Source: Escherichia coli (GTDB lineage Bacteria; Pseudomonadota; Gammaproteobacteria; Enterobacterales; Enterobacteriaceae). From it: a stretch of 64,000 bases of DNA. The notes under the pieces are model-generated. The model worked only from the letters and a program-made list of their open reading frames with translations, had not been told where the DNA came from and searched no databases. The stretch is taken from the NCBI RefSeq assembly GCF_050920415.1, contig NZ_CP169309.1; one strand, written 5' to 3'. The translations under genes and the position numbers were made by a program. Below are positions 5,265 through 51,677 of this stretch, piece after piece; the stretch's first letter is position 1; every line of letters starts with the position of its first letter.

Positions 5265-5446
5265 CATTGCCGGATGCGATGCTGGCGCATCTTATCCGGC
5301 CTACAGGTGCCACCTTCCGAAGGTCGGATAAGGCGTTTATGCCGCATCCGACTGTCATTGCCGGATGCGATGTTGACACATCTTATCCAGCCTACAGGTG
5401 CCATCTTTCGTAGGTCGGATAAGGCGTTTATGCCGCATCCGACTGT
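5265..5446. repeat. Two tandem 91-bp units of REP/BIME-type palindromic repeats between ybaL and gsk
   Basis: Unit beginning CATTGCCGGATGCGATG repeats at 5265 and 5356 with a few substitutions; contains GCCGGATGCG...CGCATCCGGC-type palindromes typical of enterobacterial REP elements. Confidence 0.85.
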
Positions 5447-9792: not shown

Positions 9793-11667
9793 TCAGGAAA
9801 CCAGCAGCTGGTTCATACGACGAATAAACAGGTTCGGATCTTCCAGCGTACCGCGCTCTGCCAGCAGCGCCTGATCCAGCAGCAGTTCTACCCACTCGCT
9901 GAACTTCGCTTCATCTTCAGTATCTGCCGCACGTTTCACCAGTACGTGATCCGGGTTCAGTTCGAAGATGTATTTCACTTCTGGTACTTTCTGGCCCGCC
10001 GCAGCGAACAGTTTCGCCATCTGGGTGCTCATTTCGTCCGCGTCGGTCGAAACGATCGCTGGCGTATCGGTCAGACGGTGAGTCAGACGGACATCTTTCA
10101 CGCGCTCGCCGAGCAGGGCTTTCACACGGTCGATGAACGGAGTCAGTGCTTTCTCCGCTTCTTTCGCGCTCTCATCAACTTCGTCAGCCAGTTTTTCCAG
10201 CGACTCGTCAACTTTAGACACAGACTGGAACGGTTTACCGTCGAACTCAGTCAGATAGTTCATCATCCACTCATCAATGCGGTCGGAAAGCAGCAGAACT
10301 TCGATGCCTTTCTTACGCAGCAGCTCCAGGTGCGGGCTGCTCTTCGCTGCCGCGTAGCTGTCTGCGGTGATGTAGTAGATTTTCTCCTGCCCTTCTTTCA
10401 TGCGGGAAACGTAGTCTTCCAGAGACACGGTCTGCGCAGAAGAGTCGGTATGTGTAGAAGCAAACCGCAGCAGTTTGGCGATCGCTTCCTGGTTAGCGAA
10501 ATCTTCCGCCGGACCTTCTTTCAGCACCAGGCCAAACTGTTGCCAGAAGGTCTGATATTTTTCCGCGTCGTCTTTCGCCAGTTTTTCCAGCATTTGCAGC
10601 ACACGCTTAGTCAGCGCATTGCGCAGGTTGCGCGTTACTGTGCTGTCCTGGAGGATTTCACGGGAAACATTCAGCGGCAGATCGCTGGAGTCAATCAGAC
10701 CACGCACGAAGCGCAGATAGTTCGGCATGAACTGTTCTGCGTCGTCCATGATGAACACACGCTGGACGTACAGTTTCAGGCCGTGCTTATGATCGCGGTT
10801 CCACATATCCCACGGTGCCTGCGACGGGATGTACAGCAGGCTGGTGTACTCCTGCTTACCTTCGACACGGTTGTGGCTCCAGGTCAGCGGATCGTTAAAG
10901 TCGTGAGCGATGTGTTTGTAGAACTCTTTGTACTCTTCATCGGTAATTTCCGACTTGTTACGGGTCCACAGCGCCTGCGCTTTGTTGATTTTCTCCCAGG
11001 AGATAACGGTTTCGCCGTCTTTCTCTTCGCGTTTTTCGATCTCTACCGGCAGCGCGATATGGTCGGAGTATTTGCTGATGATGGAACGCACACGCCAGTC
11101 ATCGAGGAACTCGTCTTCGCCTTCACGCAGATGCAGGGTGATTTCAGTACCACGATCTTCTTTGGTGATGTCGGCAACGGTATATTCACCTTCGCCAGCC
11201 GATTCCCAGAAGACGCCGTTTTCTGGTTTTTCGCCTGCCGCGCGAGTACGCACGGTCACTTTGTCGGCCACGATAAACGCAGAGTAGAAACCAACACCAA
11301 ACTGACCGATCAGTTGGCTGTCTTTCGCCTGGTCAGAACCCAGGGATTCGAGGAATGATTTGGTGCCGGATTTAGCGATAGTCCCCAGATGGTCAATCAC
11401 TTCGTCGCGGGTCATCCCCACGCCGTTATCGGAGATGGTCAGCGTACGCTTGTCTTTATCGAAAGAGACACGAACGCGCAGTTCGCCATCACCTTCGTAC
11501 AGGTCCGGGTTAGAGAGCGCGCGGAAACGCAGCTTGTCCGCCGCATCGGAGGCGTTAGAGATAAGCTCACGCAGGAAGATTTCTTTATTGGAATAGAGAG
11601 AATGGATCATCAGGTGCAGAAGTTGTTTCACTTCTGACTGAAAACCACGAGTTTCTTGTCCTTTCAT
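9793..11667 (-). CDS. htpG: Hsp90-family chaperone HtpG (624 aa)
   Basis: Full-length ORF with GHKL ATPase N-terminus; recognised as E. coli HtpG. Confidence 0.95.
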
Positions 11668-11718: not shown

Positions 11719-11747
11719 AGATGGGGACAAGGGAGAATAATTTCAAG
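11719..11747 (-). promoter_or_regulatory. Sigma32 heat-shock promoter of htpG: -35 CTTGAAA, 14-nt spacer, -10 CCCCATCT
   Basis: Minus-strand reading CTTGAAATTATTCTCCCTTGTCCCCATCT matches the sigma32 consensus (CTTGAAA ... CCCCATnT). Confidence 0.75.
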
Positions 11748-12763: not shown

Positions 12764-14695
12764 TCAAATGGGGCGGATACTTTCTTCATCCAGCTCCGCA
12801 TCGAAGAACCGACGCAGGGTCTGAATATTATTATCCGCAATAATGGACTCGCGCGCCTGCGCAAGTTTTTCTTCGTATATCGCCTGACGCCATTCCAGCG
12901 GCGTACGCACCGCGGGATTATCATCTTCAACGATAGTCAGTTCAACCGTTGAACCTTTTAACGTGCTCAACGCTTCAGCCAGTTTTTGCTGTGCGCCGCT
13001 GTTATTCAGATGACGCTGAGAGGAGCGCAAATGCAGACACACCGTGTTGCCGTTCTCCTCTTTCCAGGCATTTAACGCCACCTGTTCGACCAGTTTTGGT
13101 AGCGAAAGTTGACTCACCTGAGCCGCCCACGGGTCGCGCTCAATGGCTTCTGCCGCCAGCTTCGCCGCCAGTTCCGGCGTTTTTTCATGTTCCAGCGCTT
13201 TTTTTAGCGCCTTCGGCGTGGCGACCACTTCTTTTTGCTGCATCACTGGAGTGGTAGCCTTCCAGCGATACGCTTCTTTTTTGGCTGGTGCTTTTTCCAG
13301 CGCCGATGGCACCGGACGCGCCTGAACGCGATCGGTGACCGAAGCCAGTCTTTCCAGCGCAGCGTTATTCACCGGCCGCGCGCGGGTAGCGGCTGCCGGT
13401 TCACTCTTTTTTGCTTTGGTTGCTCCCTGTGCGCGCTGCAGTTGTTGGCGCGCCGCCAGCACCTGGCTGGTGGTTTCTGAGAGCGGTACAGTCGGTGCCT
13501 GCTGCGGAGCTGATTGCGGTTGCGGCGGCACCTGGGTTGGCGTCATTACTGCCGTTGGCGCGACGGGCGCAAAAGACTGGCGTGGCACTTCTGGCTCAGG
13601 CAGCGGCATACGCGGATGAAACGCCAGTGCGCGCAACAGCGTCATCTCAACGCCCATGCGGCGGTCCGGCGCATACGGTAATTCTTTGCGACCAATCAAC
13701 AGCGTTTGATAGTAAAGCTGAATATCCGTCGGCGGTATGGTGCGCGCCAGTTCACGCATCCGCAGCTCGATGGCGGCCATGTCGTTGCCCAGCGCAGCAG
13801 GGGAAAGTTGCACCATTGCAATGCGGTGCAACAGGCCGAGCATTTCTACCAGCAACGCTTCCCACTCAATACCACGAGCGGCGGCTTCATTAATCAGCGA
13901 CATTACACGCTCGCCGTTGGCTTCAACCATCGCTTCAACCAGCGACAGCGCCTGATCGTCGTCAAGCGTACCCAGCATCGCACTGACCGCCTGAGTTGAA
14001 ACCTGGCCGTCACCGCTGGCAATCGCCTGGTCGGTCAGACTTAAGGCATCTCGCAGGCTGCCTTCAGCGGCGCGCGCCAGCAATTGCAGCGCCCGCGGCT
14101 CGTGAGCGATATGTTCTTCGTTGAGGATGTGCTCAAGCTGATGGCGAATTTGCTCGACATCCAGCGCTTTGAGATGAAATTGCAGACAGCGTGACAAAAT
14201 CGTCACCGGCAATTTCTGCGGATCGGTCGTCGCCAGCAGAAACTTGACGTGCTCCGGCGGTTCTTCAAGGGTTTTTAACAGTGCGTTAAAGCTGTGGCGC
14301 GACAGCATATGCACTTCGTCGATCAGATAAACTTTAAAACGACCACGCGCTGGCGCGTACTGGACGTTATCCAGCAGGTCGCGGGTATCTTCGACTTTGG
14401 TACGCGAGGCGGCGTCGATTTCAATCAGATCGACAAAGCGCCCCTGCTCAATTTCACGACAGTTATCGCACACGCCGCACGGCGTCGCGGTAATGCCGGT
14501 TTCGCAGTTTAGCCCCTTCGCCAGCAGTCGGGCGATAGAGGTTTTTCCGACGCCACGGGTGCCGGAAAAAAGATAAGCATGATGAATACGCCCTAACGAC
14601 AAGCCGTTCGCCAGTGCGGTCAGCACATGTTCCTGGCCGACGACGTCAGCAAAGGTTTGTGGGCGCCATTTTCGGGCTAAGACCTGATAACTCAT
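12764..14695 (-). CDS. dnaX: DNA polymerase III subunits tau/gamma (643 aa tau)
   Basis: AAA+ Walker A (GTRGVGKTS) and Zn-binding cysteines; internal A-AAA-AAG frameshift site. Confidence 0.95.
   Translation of the reverse strand: MSYQVLARKWRPQTFADVVGQEHVLTALANGLSLGRIHHAYLFSGTRGVGKTSIARLLAKGLNCETGITATPCGVCDNCREIEQGRFVDLIEIDAASRTKVEDTRDLLDNVQYAPARGRFKVYLIDEVHMLSRHSFNALLKTLEEPPEHVKFLLATTDPQKLPVTILSRCLQFHLKALDVEQIRHQLEHILNEEHIAHEPRALQLLARAAEGSLRDALSLTDQAIASGDGQVSTQAVSAMLGTLDDDQALSLVEAMVEANGERVMSLINEAAARGIEWEALLVEMLGLLHRIAMVQLSPAALGNDMAAIELRMRELARTIPPTDIQLYYQTLLIGRKELPYAPDRRMGVEMTLLRALAFHPRMPLPEPEVPRQSFAPVAPTAVMTPTQVPPQPQSAPQQAPTVPLSETTSQVLAARQQLQRAQGATKAKKSEPAAATRARPVNNAALERLASVTDRVQARPVPSALEKAPAKKEAYRWKATTPVMQQKEVVATPKALKKALEHEKTPELAAKLAAEAIERDPWAAQVSQLSLPKLVEQVALNAWKEENGNTVCLHLRSSQRHLNNSGAQQKLAEALSTLKGSTVELTIVEDDNPAVRTPLEWRQAIYEEKLAQARESIIADNNIQTLRRFFDAELDEESIRPI
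13406..13412 (-). other. Programmed -1 ribosomal frameshift heptamer A-AAA-AAG in dnaX (codons 428-430); the -1 frame reads GAG then UGA, producing gamma
   Basis: Heptamer located in frame by counting codons from the dnaX start; GC-rich hairpin immediately 3' at about 13372-13400. Confidence 0.85.
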
Positions 14696-30226: not shown

Positions 30227-30340
30227 GGGTGGGGGCCCTGCCAGCTACATCCCGGCACACGCGTCATCTGCCTTGGCTGCTTCCTTCCGGACCTGACCTG
30301 GTAAACAGAGTAGCGTTGCGGGAGAACCAACAGAGCCCCC
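30227..30340 (-). ncRNA. ffs: 4.5S RNA, the RNA component of the signal recognition particle (114 nt)
   Basis: Reverse complement reads GGGGGCUCUGUUGGUUCUCCCGCAACGC...GGCAGGGCCCCCACCC, matching the E. coli 4.5S RNA as recalled from memory, with the conserved GGAA tetraloop region. Confidence 0.93.
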
Positions 30341-45557: not shown

Positions 45558-47912
45558 CTATTTTGCAGTCACAACCTGCATGCCAGACGGTTCATTTTGC
45601 AGCGCCAGAGTCAGAACTTCCTCAATGCGTTTCACAGGATGAATGTCCAGATCAGCAATTACGTTGTCAGGAATCTCTTCCAGATCGCGTTTATTTTCGA
45701 ACGGAATTAACACTGTTTTAATCCCGCCGCGATGCGCTGCCAGTAGTTTTTCTTTCAAACCACCGATCGGCAGTACCTGACCACGCAGAGTGATCTCACC
45801 GGTCATTGCCACATCGGCACGAACCGGGTTACCGGTCAGGCAAGAAACCAGCGCGGTGCACATAGCAATACCGGCACTCGGACCATCTTTCGGCGTCGCA
45901 CCTTCCGGTACGTGGACGTGGATGTCGCGTTTTTCGTAAAAATCAGGGTTGATCCCCAGTTTTTCCGCACGCGCACGAACCACCGTTAACGCCGCCTGAA
46001 TGGACTCTTGCATTACTTCGCCGAGCGAACCGGTATAGGTCAGTTTGCCTTTACCCGGAACGCACGCGGTTTCAATGGTCAGCAAGTCACCGCCCACTTC
46101 CGTCCACGCCAGACCAGTTACCTGACCGACACGGTTTTCGTTATCCGCGCGACCATAGTCGAAACGCTGAACACCGAGATAGTCGTGCAGGTTATCGCCG
46201 TTAATTTCGATATGTTTTAAAGACTTATCGAGCAACAACTGCTTAACCGCTTTACGGCACAGTTTGGAGATTTCACGCTCCAGGCCACGCACGCCCGCCT
46301 CACGGGTGTAGTAACGAATAATGCCGATAATGGCGCTATCGTCGACGGTCAGTTCACCTTTTTTCAGTGCATTACGTTCAATCTGCTTCGGCAGCAGGTG
46401 ACGTTTGGCGATGTTCAGTTTTTCATCTTCGGTATAACCGGAGAGGCGAATCACTTCCATACGATCCAGCAGCGGTGCCGGAATGTTCATGGAATTCGAC
46501 GTCGCGACAAACATCACGTCGCTGAGATCGTAATCCACTTCCAGGTAGTGGTCGCTGAACGCTACGTTCTGCTCTGGATCCAGCACTTCAAGCAGTGCGG
46601 AAGCCGGATCGCCTCGCATGTCAGAAGACATTTTGTCGATCTCATCGAGCAGGAACAGCGGGTTTTTCACGCCCACTTTCGCCATTTTCTGGATCAGTTT
46701 ACCCGGCATAGAACCGATGTAAGTACGGCGGTGACCACGGATTTCCGCTTCGTCACGCACGCCGCCCAGCGCCATACGAACATATTTACGTCCGGTAGCT
46801 TTGGCGATGGACTGACCAAGAGAAGTTTTACCTACCCCCGGCGGCCCTACCAGGCAGAGGATCGGTCCCTTGATTTTGTTGACACGGCTTTGAACCGCAA
46901 GATACTCAAGGATGCGATCTTTCACGCGCTCCAGACCATAATGGTCGGTATCAAGGATTTCCTGCGCCTGACGCAGGTCTTTTTTGACCTTGCTACGCGC
47001 ATTCCACGGTACCTGTACCATCCAGTCGATATAACCACGCACTACGGTCGCTTCTGCCGACATCGGAGACATCATTTTCAGCTTCTGCAACTCTGCTTCC
47101 GCTTTCTCTTTTGCCTCTTTCGGCATTTTCGCCGCGTCGATTTTGCGCTTCAGTGCTTCGTTTTCGTCCGGCGCATCGTCCATTTCGCCGAGTTCTTTCT
47201 GAATAGCTTTCATTTGCTCGTTCAGATAGTACTCACGCTGGGATTTCTCCATCTGCTTTTTAACGCGGTTGCGAATGCGTTTCTCAACCTGCAGCAGATC
47301 GATTTCCGATTCCATCATCGCCATCAGATATTCCAGACGTTCGTTGACGTCGGACATCTCAAGCACGGACTGTTTGTCAGCCAGTTTCAGCGGCATATGC
47401 GCAGCAATGGTATCCGCCAGACGCGCCGGATCGTCGATGCTGTTCAGCGACGTCAGCACTTCTGGTGGAATTTTTTTGTTCAGCTTGATGTAGCCTTCGA
47501 ACTGGCTGATTGCAGTACGCACCAGCACTTCCTGTTCCCGCTCATCAATGGTCGGCGACTCCAGATACTCCGCCTTCGCAGAAAAGTGTTCGCCATTGTC
47601 AGAGAGCGCAGAAATACGCGCGCGCTGTAACCCCTCGACCAGCACTTTGACGGTGCCGTCAGGCAGTTTCAGCATCTGCAATATAGAGGCCACGGTCCCG
47701 ACGGTGAAAAGATCGTTTACACCCGGCTCATCCGTTGAAGCTTCTTTCTGCGCGACCAGCATAATTTTTTTATCATGGTCCATCGCCGCTTCCAGACAAC
47801 GGATAGATTTTTCCCGCCCGACAAATAAGGGGATGACCATGTGCGGATAAACCACCACATCGCGCAGCGGCAATACGGGGATTTCAATGCGTTCAGAACG
47901 CTCAGGATTCAT
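45558..47912 (-). CDS. lon: ATP-dependent Lon protease (784 aa)
   Basis: Starts [37 protein letters not shown]; Walker [10 protein letters not shown]; catalytic Ser in PKDGPSAG. Confidence 0.95.
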
Positions 47913-47995
47913 AGAGCTCTCTCTTAGTTTAATTTCCGCCAGGTAATCAGATGACACGACTGTGCTTCACGCCATCTATTAACATGTACGTCAGT

Positions 47996-48024
47996 ATATG
48001 GGGATGTTTCCCCCACATTCAACG
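47996..48024 (-). promoter_or_regulatory. Sigma32 heat-shock promoter of lon: -35 GTTGAATG, 14-nt spacer, -10 CCCCATAT
   Basis: Minus strand reads GGCGTTGAATGTGGGGGAAACATCCCCATATACTGACG. Confidence 0.75.
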
Positions 48025-48037
48025 CCGAGAATAGAGG

Positions 48038-48071
48038 AAAAATTAAAGGGGAGATAAAATCCCCCCTTTTT
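48038..48071 (-). terminator. Hairpin terminator between clpX and lon
   Basis: GGGGAGA-TAAAA-TCCCCCC stem with T-rich flanks on both strands. Confidence 0.6.
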
Positions 48072-48099
48072 GGTTAACTAATTGTATGGGAATGGTTAA

Positions 48100-49374
48100 T
48101 TATTCACCAGATGCCTGTTGCGCTTCCGGCTTGCCATAAATCAGCAACGGTTTGCTTTGACCATCAATTACCGACTCGTCGATAACCACTTTCTCGACAT
48201 CTTCCATGGACGGCAGATCGTACATGGTATCGAGCAGTGCGGCTTCTACGATGGAACGCAGGCCACGGGCACCGGTTTTACGCGCCATCGCTTTCTTAGC
48301 GATAGCATCCAGCGCCTCGTCACGGAATTCCAGATCCACGCCTTCCAGATTAAACAGCGCCTGATACTGCTTGGTCAGGGCGTTTTTCGGCTCTTTGAGG
48401 ATCTGAATCAGAGCTTCTTCGCTCAGTTCATTCAACGTTGCGACAACCGGCAGACGACCAATGAACTCAGGGATCAGACCAAACTTGATCAGATCTTCCG
48501 GTTCAACCTGCGCCAGCAGCTCGCCTTCACTTGCTTTGTCAGATTTCGCTTTTACCGTCGCGCCAAAACCAATGCCGGAGCCTGTTTCTACACGATGGGA
48601 AATCACTTTATCCAGACCGGCAAACGCACCGCCACAGATAAACAGGATCTTAGAAGTATCAACCTGCAAGAATTCCTGCTGCGGATGTTTACGCCCACCT
48701 TGCGGCGGAACAGCAGCTACCGTACCTTCGATCAGTTTCAACAGTGCCTGCTGTACGCCTTCACCGGAAACGTCTCGGGTAATGGACGGGTTGTCTGACT
48801 TACGAGAAATCTTGTCGATTTCATCGATGTAGACAATCCCGCGCTGCGCTTTCTGTACGTCGTAATCGCACTTTTGCAACAGCTTCTGAATGATGTTTTC
48901 AACGTCTTCGCCCACATAACCGGCTTCGGTCAGCGTGGTTGCATCGGCCATGGTGAACGGGACGTCCAGCAGGCGCGCCAGCGTTTCGGCCAGCAGCGTT
49001 TTACCGGAACCGGTCGGACCGATCAGCAGAATGTTACTTTTGCCCAACTCGACACCATTGCTGGTATCTCCGTTGCGCAGACGTTTGTAGTGGTTGTATA
49101 CCGCGACCGCCAGCACTTTTTTCGCCTGTTCCTGACCGATAACGTAATCGTCCAGGTGGTTGCGAATTTCATGCGGCGTCGGTAGCGCACTGCGTTCACG
49201 ATGCGGTGCAACTTCTTTAATCTCTTCGCGAATGATGTCGTTACATAAATCAACACATTCGTCGCAGATATACACGGATGGACCGGCAATCAGCTTGCGC
49301 ACTTCATGCTGGCTTTTGCCGCAAAAAGAGCAATACAGCAATTTGCCTGAGCCATCTTTGCGTTTATCTGTCAT
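48100..49374 (-). CDS. clpX: ATP-dependent Clp protease ATPase subunit ClpX (424 aa)
   Basis: N-terminal C4 zinc finger (CSFCGK...CDEC) and Walker A GPTGSGKT. Confidence 0.95.
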
Positions 49375-49500: not shown

Positions 49501-50124
49501 TCAATTACGATGGGTCAGAATCGAATCGACCAGACCGTATTCCACCGCTTCAGGGGCGGAAAGGAAGCGATCGCGCTCGGTGTCACGTTCAATCTGTTCT
49601 AATGATTGACCCGTATGAAGCGCCATAAGTTCATTCATACGCCCTTTAACTTTCAGAATTTCACGGGCATGAATTTCGATATCGGTCGCCTGGCCCTGGT
49701 AGCCGCCCAACGGCTGGTGAATCATCACGCGCGAATTCGGCAGGCAGAAACGTTTACCTTTTGCCCCTGCAGTCAGCAAGAAAGCGCCCATCGAAGCCGC
49801 CTGGCCCATACAGATGGTGCTGACATCAGGCTTGATAAACTGCATGGTGTCATAGATAGACATCCCGGCAGTGATCACCCCGCCTGGGGAGTTAATGTAC
49901 AGATAGATATCTTTTTCTGGGTTTTCTGCTTCCAGGAACAGCATCTGCGCCACAATCAAGTTAGCCATGTGGTCTTCAACCTGGCCAGTCAGAAAAATGA
50001 CGCGTTCCTTAAGTAGACGAGAATAGATATCAAAAGAGCGCTCACCACGTGAGGTCTGTTCAATGACCATCGGCACCAGCGCCATATGGGGTGCAAAGTT
50101 ATCTCGTTCGCCGCTGTATGACAT
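49501..50124 (-). CDS. clpP: ATP-dependent Clp protease proteolytic subunit ClpP (207 aa)
   Basis: Full-length ORF with Ser-His-Asp protease motifs (GQAASMGA). Confidence 0.95.
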
Positions 50125-50303
50125 TTCCGTCTCCTGGATAAAATTGAAAAAACCTGCTGTACCGATTGTAACCTTATGGACGGATTATCAGCTAGTCCCT
50201 GTGTTATGGGTACGGCATCACCATATTTCAAGCATAACAATCTTTTGTTGTTACGCTAACACCGAAAGAGGCTTTTCGCACGGTTCCATGCAAAATTCAT
50301 GAC

Positions 50304-50369: not shown

Positions 50370-51677
<1,308 letters not shown>

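Follow-up and report, generated by a model that had tools for sequence, protein, structure and literature searches.

Terminator, promoter and insertion-sequence target in the clpX–lon intergenic region of an Escherichia coli genome, and the SraA annotation on the opposite strand

The clpX–lon intergenic region in the 64,000-nucleotide stretch of Escherichia coli DNA analysed here (the window) most probably combines an intrinsic terminator of clpX, a sigma32/sigma70-type promoter of lon and, in the spacer of that promoter, a target site of IS186. To this picture as a whole we assign a probability of about 0.92. It is built on the positions of the elements, their match to consensus sequences, mapped RNA ends, conservation and an IS186 junction, all of them established in this analysis. 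The original prediction, made from the letters alone, had recognised a sigma32 promoter of lon next to a hairpin that probably terminates clpX. This reading was incomplete rather than wrong, since it lacked the sigma70-type -10 element, the IS186 hotspot and the annotation of SraA on the opposite strand.

The surroundings of the interval 47996-48071 contain open reading frames (ORFs) on the minus strand only:

50370-51668, minus strand: ORF of 432 aa (ORF list)
49501-50124, minus strand: ORF of 207 aa (ORF list)
49374-48100, minus strand: clpX, ORF of 424 aa (ORF list and K-12 annotation)
48100..48102, minus strand: stop codon TAA of clpX, with ClpX ending in ...PEAQQASGE* (translation and RefSeq annotation of the identical K-12 sequence)
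47912-47910 (ATG) to 45558, minus strand: lon, a long ORF

The minus, transcribed, strand reads ...GGTGAATAA-(30 nt)-AAAGGGGGGATTTTATCTCCCCTTTAATTTTTCCTCTATTCTCGGCGTTGAATGTGGGGGAAACATCCCCATATACTGACGTACATG... across the interval. The 187-bp region between clpX and lon is 100% identical to that of K-12 MG1655, as are the 251 nt that span it, and the genes flanking the identical sequence in K-12 are tig, clpP, clpX, lon, hupB and ppiD. A 301-nt query over the feature finds a match of at least 99% identity in 5424 of the 5426 complete E. coli genomes, and the annotations at these matches are clpX and lon. The window thus carries the E. coli tig-clpP-clpX-lon-hupB heat-shock block, with wild-type lon regulation and without an IS186 insertion. 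Window positions (x) are converted to NC_000913.3 coordinates as K12 = 458888 + (47912 - x).

The four strings on which the original prediction was based are all present where it had placed them. Their strands are mixed, the promoter octamers having been read from the minus strand and the hairpin arms from the plus strand:

48023-48016, minus strand: promoter octamer GTTGAATG
48003-47996, minus strand: promoter octamer CCCCATAT
48048-48054, plus strand: hairpin arm GGGGAGA
48060-48066, plus strand: hairpin arm TCCCCCC

The hairpin arms belong to a terminator that occupies the clpX-proximal part of the intergenic region:

48045..48069, minus strand: clpX intrinsic-terminator hairpin AAAGGGGGGAU-UUU-AUCUCCCCUUU (fold, terminator scan and EcoCyc centre)
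48036..48047, minus strand: terminator T-tract TTTAATTTTT(CC), with the mapped 3' ends inside

The G+C-rich hairpin begins 31 nt past the clpX stop codon and folds into an 11-bp stem, with one G.U pair, and a 3-nt loop (dG -15.5 kcal/mol); the U-tract UUUAAUUUUU follows. T-rich flanks had been predicted, and on the minus strand they are found as AAAAA upstream and TTTAATTTTT downstream. Scanning of positions 47700-48300 returned five terminator-like sites versus 0.5 expected. The predicted role of the hairpin in ending clpX transcripts is borne out by two sets of mapped 3' ends, both within the T-tract. The MG1655 Term-seq data of Adams et al. 2021 (PMC7815308) contain a curated 3' end at 458758 on the plus strand, which corresponds to window position 48042, the first U past UUUAA; it was recorded under two of the three growth conditions, and its intrinsic-terminator score is 6.2 (threshold 3). 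In the SMRT-Cappable-seq data (Yan et al. 2018, PMC6131387), full-length clpPX reads that begin at four clpP-proximal starts (456554, 456576, 456604 and 456642) end at 458758/458759, i.e., at window positions 48042/48041. These ends are flagged there as the known b0438 terminator, the centre of which (458743, window 48057) falls in the hairpin loop (PMC6131387). According to the published SMRT-Cappable-seq counts, 10 of 170 reads (5.9%) pass the terminator in M9 and 19 of 121 (15.7%) in rich medium. RegulonDB includes a clpX-lon unit, which fits a read-through of 6-16%. Transcripts from the clpP promoters would therefore be expected to cross clpX, fold the hairpin and be released in the U-tract, and termination would be of the classical intrinsic type, with an efficiency of about 85-94%.

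Downstream of the terminator, the minus strand carries the elements of the lon promoter and the lon leader:

48018..48030, minus strand: extended sigma32 -35 region TCTCGGCGTTGAA, matching 9 of the 11 specified positions of TNtCNCcCTTGAA
48017..48022, minus strand: -35 hexamer TTGAAT, common to both promoter types (sigma32 and sigma70-type), with no variation in 104 species
47995..48003, minus strand: sigma32 -10 element CCCCATATA, matching 8 of the 9 positions of CCCCATtTa, 14 nt from TTGAA
47993..47998, minus strand: sigma70-type -10 hexamer TATACT, 18 nt from TTGAAT, overlapping the sigma32 -10 element (consensus scan)
47985..47988, minus strand: lon transcription start (47985 by Cappable-seq, 47988 by SMRT-Cappable-seq)
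47913..47984, minus strand: lon 5' UTR, about 73-76 nt (alignment A2, see below)

The sigma32 consensus has been given as TNtCNCcCTTGAA at -35 and CCCCATtTa at -10 (PMC12077118). When the -35 region of lon is compared with CTTGAA, the TTGAA core is exact and the preceding C is replaced by G. The spacer of 14 nt that had been proposed holds for the cores TTGAA (48022-48018) and CCCCAT (48003-47998) and not for the quoted octamers, which are 12 nt apart. The two cores are also 14 nt apart in the dnaK P1 scaffold of the sigma32 open-complex structure, in which the T of CCCCAT is at -10 (PMC10216364). By this geometry, the lon start is predicted at 47988. Sequences of the form TTGAA-N12-16-CCCCAT occur twice in the 64-kb window, versus 0.16 expected from shuffles, and both of these strict matches stand upstream of heat-shock genes, lon and htpG. 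The dependence of lon expression on sigma32 was reported previously (PMC7279449 and PMC9961632, citing Goff 1984 and Grossman 1984).

The mapped 5' ends are consistent with this promoter. In SMRT-Cappable-seq, a clustered lon start supported by 264 reads lies at NC_000913.3 position 458812 (window 47988) and its reads cover lon or lon and hupB. In the Cappable-seq entries, which cover the K-12 plus strand up to about 1 Mb, the dominant lon start is at U00096.2 position 458039, with a score of 189 versus 3-6 for its neighbours. The offset between U00096.2 and U00096.3, which we take to be 776 bp, places this start at window position 47985, 3 nt downstream of the sigma32 start predicted from dnaK P1 and in better agreement with the sigma70-type TATACT. 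In K-12 coordinates, the lon starts thus cover 458812-458815. Since the mapped lon 5' ends sit 7-10 nt past CCCCATATA and not elsewhere, start mapping does not contradict the lon promoter, and the TTGAA/CCCCAT pair, which fits the sigma32 consensus, was correctly singled out. All these start data were obtained from unstressed cultures, in which the contributions of the sigma32 and sigma70 holoenzymes are not separable. In the mechanism that we propose from the sequence elements, sigma32 RNA polymerase would bind TTGAA (-35) and CCCCATATA (-10), 22 nt beyond the terminator, and lon transcription would begin 7-10 nt downstream of the -10 element with a leader of ~75 nt.

Several weaker ends were recorded around the main start. 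Minor capped 5' ends on the minus strand are located at 48020, 47968, 47941 and 47919, with Cappable-seq scores of 3-6 versus 189 for the main start, and minor SMRT-Cappable-seq starts of lon-hupB transcripts are at K-12 positions 458724 and 458779. Among the minor starts, one at about 48076 precedes the terminator hairpin and another falls within the -35 element. At the other end, lon transcripts in the SMRT-Cappable-seq data stop at one of two places, 461310 behind lon, where a novel TTS was called, or 461784 behind hupB, where the terminator is known, and therefore lon and hupB are partly co-transcribed.

Conservation was analysed in 120 Enterobacterales loci, which were retrieved with a DNA pattern for the first 26 residues of Lon and thus with no constraint on the upstream sequence. 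The genera sampled include Escherichia, Salmonella, Citrobacter, Klebsiella, Enterobacter, Pantoea, Erwinia and Serratia, as well as Yersinia, Dickeya, Pectobacterium, Edwardsiella, Hafnia, Providencia, Photorhabdus and Xenorhabdus. Of 115 upstream regions, 110 carry TTGAA-N14-CCCCAT, none of them with any other spacer length, and a single real -10 variant, CCCAAT, was found among the orthologues. In an alignment of 104 sequences (A2), TTGAAT is invariant and so are CCCCATATA and the T that follows it (the -10 element in 103 of 104), and the 13 nt between TTGAAT and CCCCATATA vary freely in sequence. Invariant elements separated by a spacer of variable sequence are the signature of a promoter. 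The leader of lon contains two further blocks, ACCTGGCGG (47944-47936) and AAGAGAGAGCTCT (47925-47913), which are invariant or nearly so across the 104 Enterobacterales; the sequence that separates these blocks from the promoter varies freely. The second block directly precedes the lon ATG and carries the palindrome AGAGCTCT, and the minor Cappable-seq end at 47941 lies inside the first one. Folding did not support a conserved structure of the lon 5' UTR, which folds no better than its shuffles (mean z -0.5).

A hairpin is found between the clpX stop codon and the -35 element in all 104 Enterobacterales species, and it takes the form of 67 distinct sequences with stems of 8-17 bp. As stem lengths vary between clades and MAFFT misaligned the arms, hairpins were compared species by species and not from the MAFFT alignment. 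When they are anchored at the loop, nearly every stem position shows several Watson-Crick types, with exchanges among G-C, A-T and T-A (for instance, A-T 36, T-A 16 and G-C 10 at pair 8), although this tally of compensatory changes is anchored on the predicted fold of each species and is thus biased towards structure. In every species, the hairpin region folds better than its shuffles (mean z -4.2). The distal TTTT run of the T-tract is invariant or nearly so in alignment A2.

The spacer between the two promoter elements contains a further feature:

48001..48013, minus strand: spacer palindrome GGGGAAACATCCC, IS186 insertion hotspot, duplicated in BL21

The spacer palindrome GGGGGAAACATCCCC is a known hotspot of IS186 (PMC3045373, PMC11251521). 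In BL21(DE3) (NC_012971.2), an element of 1337 bp from the IS186/IS421 family is located between clpX and lon with GGGGAAACATCCC at each of its junctions, indicating that the insertion splits the lon -35 element from the -10 element. Of 5424 complete E. coli genomes, 5368 have an uninterrupted 71-nt promoter core, and in 55 of 5425 E. coli records this core is divided between two places. The palindrome is restricted to the group of Escherichia, Salmonella, Citrobacter and Enterobacter, and the other genera have unrelated spacers. In most species, the G4-N-C4 palindrome would be incidental to promoter function; in E. coli it is the preferred target of IS186, the insertion of which parts -35 from -10 and silences lon, as in BL21. 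NZ_CP069132.1 (BW25113 substr. CHXR1G20) was considered as a second case of IS186 insertion on account of a truncated promoter match and rejected, because the assembly contains N's and the intergenic region has its normal length of 187 bp. In this laboratory-evolved strain, the run of N's lies exactly over the lon -10 element and the start region; it may reflect a mixed population, e.g., with IS186 in a subpopulation, that was collapsed by the assembler.

Two of these assignments have to be weighed against other explanations of the same data. The 3' end at 48042 could stem from Rho-dependent termination, or from exonucleolytic trimming to a stable hairpin, rather than from intrinsic termination; indeed, it lies in a 'significant Rho termination region' with a Rho score of 1.66 (Adams et al., PMC7815308). 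This score is uninformative, because the downstream window in which reads were counted contains transcripts from the lon promoter. The hairpin and its U-tract are canonical, the 3' end is 6 nt past the G+C core and within the U-tract, the intrinsic-terminator score is well above threshold, and two independent methods recovered the same end, all of which makes an origin by Rho or trimming highly improbable. As for the sigma factor, we see an even chance that, during ordinary growth, the lon promoter is essentially a sigma70 promoter, that sigma32 matters only in heat shock, and that 47985 is the sigma70 start, so that the label 'sigma32 promoter' would be incomplete. The consensus scan found TTGAAT-18-TATACT at 48022-47993 with 9 of 12 matches to the sigma70 consensus. 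A start at 47985 puts TATACT at -13 to -8, with a normal discriminator of 7 nt, and CCCCATAT at -18 to -11, and the start data come exclusively from unstressed cells. Moreover, the -7 T of TATACT (T47993) does not vary among the 104 species, even though the quoted sigma32 consensus does not include it, and for this reason the lon promoter is regarded as a putative dual sigma32/sigma70 promoter. Against an essentially sigma70 promoter, the SMRT-Cappable-seq start at 47988 is exactly the one predicted for sigma32 from the geometry of dnaK P1, and CCCC, which a sigma70 promoter does not need, is invariant. The sigma70 view complements the main explanation and does not exclude the use of sigma32. 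Overlap between sigma70 and sigma32 promoters was reportedly described by Wade et al. 2006. TATACT would share its -35 element with the sigma32 promoter and, in unstressed cells, provide basal expression of lon, most likely from an identical or neighbouring start. For sigma32 dependence and dual-sigma use we rely on the literature and on inference.

The third alternative concerns the opposite strand, where an annotated sRNA covers almost exactly the same interval:

47984..48079, plus strand: Rfam RF02029 sraA match (annotated sRNA SraA), 106.7 bits versus a gathering score of 56

The match extends over the full model (positions 1-95 of 95) and almost exactly contains 47996-48071. SraA reportedly came from the screen of Argaman et al. 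2001. It is listed as an sRNA of E. coli and Salmonella from the clpX-lon interval, and one RNA-seq study detected it in every condition. Adams et al. label the 3' end of clpX as 'antisense to sraA' (PMC7815308). The interval could accordingly be thought to encode chiefly a plus-strand sRNA, acting as a regulator in trans or as an antisense RNA to the lon promoter and leader, with selection on the RNA behind its conservation. The full-length match, the sRNA listing and RNA-seq detection, and a plus-strand hairpin followed by uninterrupted UUUUU favour this possibility. The two stem-loops of the sraA model correspond, nevertheless, to elements of the other strand: in reverse complement, SL1 is the stretch of the lon promoter formed by -10, spacer and -35, and SL2, which is followed by UUUUU, is the clpX hairpin. 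In the alignment of the sraA strand (A3), SL1 shows no covariation, with 81.2% of positions paired versus a shuffle mean of 81.3%, and no compensatory pairs, no pair being altered on both sides. The two central pairs of SL1 are disrupted in roughly half of the distinct sequences, one of its arms is the invariant CCCC of the lon -10, and its invariant bases are exactly those of the lon -35 and -10. Stability of the shared hairpin favours the clpX-sense RNA in 51 species and the antisense RNA in nine, and does not differ between the two in 44. For the E. coli stem alone, the values are -14.5 kcal/mol on the clpX strand versus -10.6 kcal/mol on the sraA strand, where the G.U pair becomes an A.C mismatch. 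The consensus scan did not find a plus-strand sigma70-like promoter for SraA, and the Term-seq list for three conditions has no 3' end of the sraA strand at this locus. Overexpression of SraA gave no phenotype in a screen of biofilm formation and motility, and a phenotype of the Salmonella sraA deletion was not reproduced. Taken together, these observations make an interval devoted chiefly to a selected sRNA unlikely.

Our reading is that two elements of the opposite strand, the promoter of lon and the terminator of clpX, fully explain the sequence conservation of the sraA family. The clpX/SraA hairpin probably terminates transcription in both directions. We tentatively propose, at slightly less than even odds, that RF02029 does not describe an RNA under selection, that its stem-loops are reverse-complemented cis-elements, and that SraA is an unselected antisense by-product which ends at the bidirectional terminator. 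In a weaker form of the by-product idea, antisense transcription into the lon promoter may tune lon by interference. A caution for sRNA catalogues follows from this comparison: a high-scoring match to an sRNA family of Rfam can rest wholly on a promoter and a terminator of the opposite strand.

Other sites of related kind were noted elsewhere in the window. The second strict sigma32-type motif, TTGAAATTATTCTCCCTTGTCCCCAT (11721-11746, minus strand), is located 54 nt upstream of the ATG at 11667 of an ORF whose product matches BL21 HtpG with 100% identity, and this position identifies it as the htpG heat-shock promoter. A relaxed sigma32-type motif, TTGAAATATGGTGATGCCGTACCCAT (50206-50231, minus strand), precedes the ATG of clpP (50124) by 82 nt. 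Of the four clpP starts in the SMRT-Cappable-seq data, the one at 456604 (window 50196) is 10 nt past this motif, which is probably the heat-shock promoter of clpP and accounts for one of several clpP starts. Searches against Rfam also returned the DnaX ribosomal frameshifting element (13367-13431, minus strand, 94.6 bits) and the small SRP RNA/ffs (30236-30332, minus strand, 68.1 bits), both above their gathering scores, as well as a marginal REP-type match to naRNA4 (5322-5392, plus strand, 63.1 bits versus a gathering score of 59.5).

All features of the interval, namely the terminator of clpX, the heat-shock promoter of lon, the hotspot of IS186 and the sraA annotation, have been described before in E. 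coli K-12, and outside annotation their importance is slight. Only the comparative case that the sraA family of Rfam rests on cis-elements of the opposite strand is mildly new. The window matches RF02029 at full length and above the gathering score, and the comparison between species gives no sign of selection on the RNA itself. The terminator is the same element as the Rho-independent terminator of clpX in EcoCyc/RegulonDB and does not differ from it, the annotated centre coinciding with the loop, and its read-through falls within the range of known terminators in the same SMRT-Cappable-seq study. Comparison with the characterised E. coli lon promoter, lonp of the K-12 sigma32/RpoH heat-shock regulon, likewise shows the same locus, an identical sequence and the same -35, -10 and starts. 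The spacing of TTGAA and CCCCAT is the one found in dnaK P1. Finally, in the lon promoter of E. coli B/BL21, IS186 is inserted in GGGGAAACATCCC, which is the basis of the Lon deficiency of these strains, whereas the window carries the uninterrupted wild-type promoter with its target intact.
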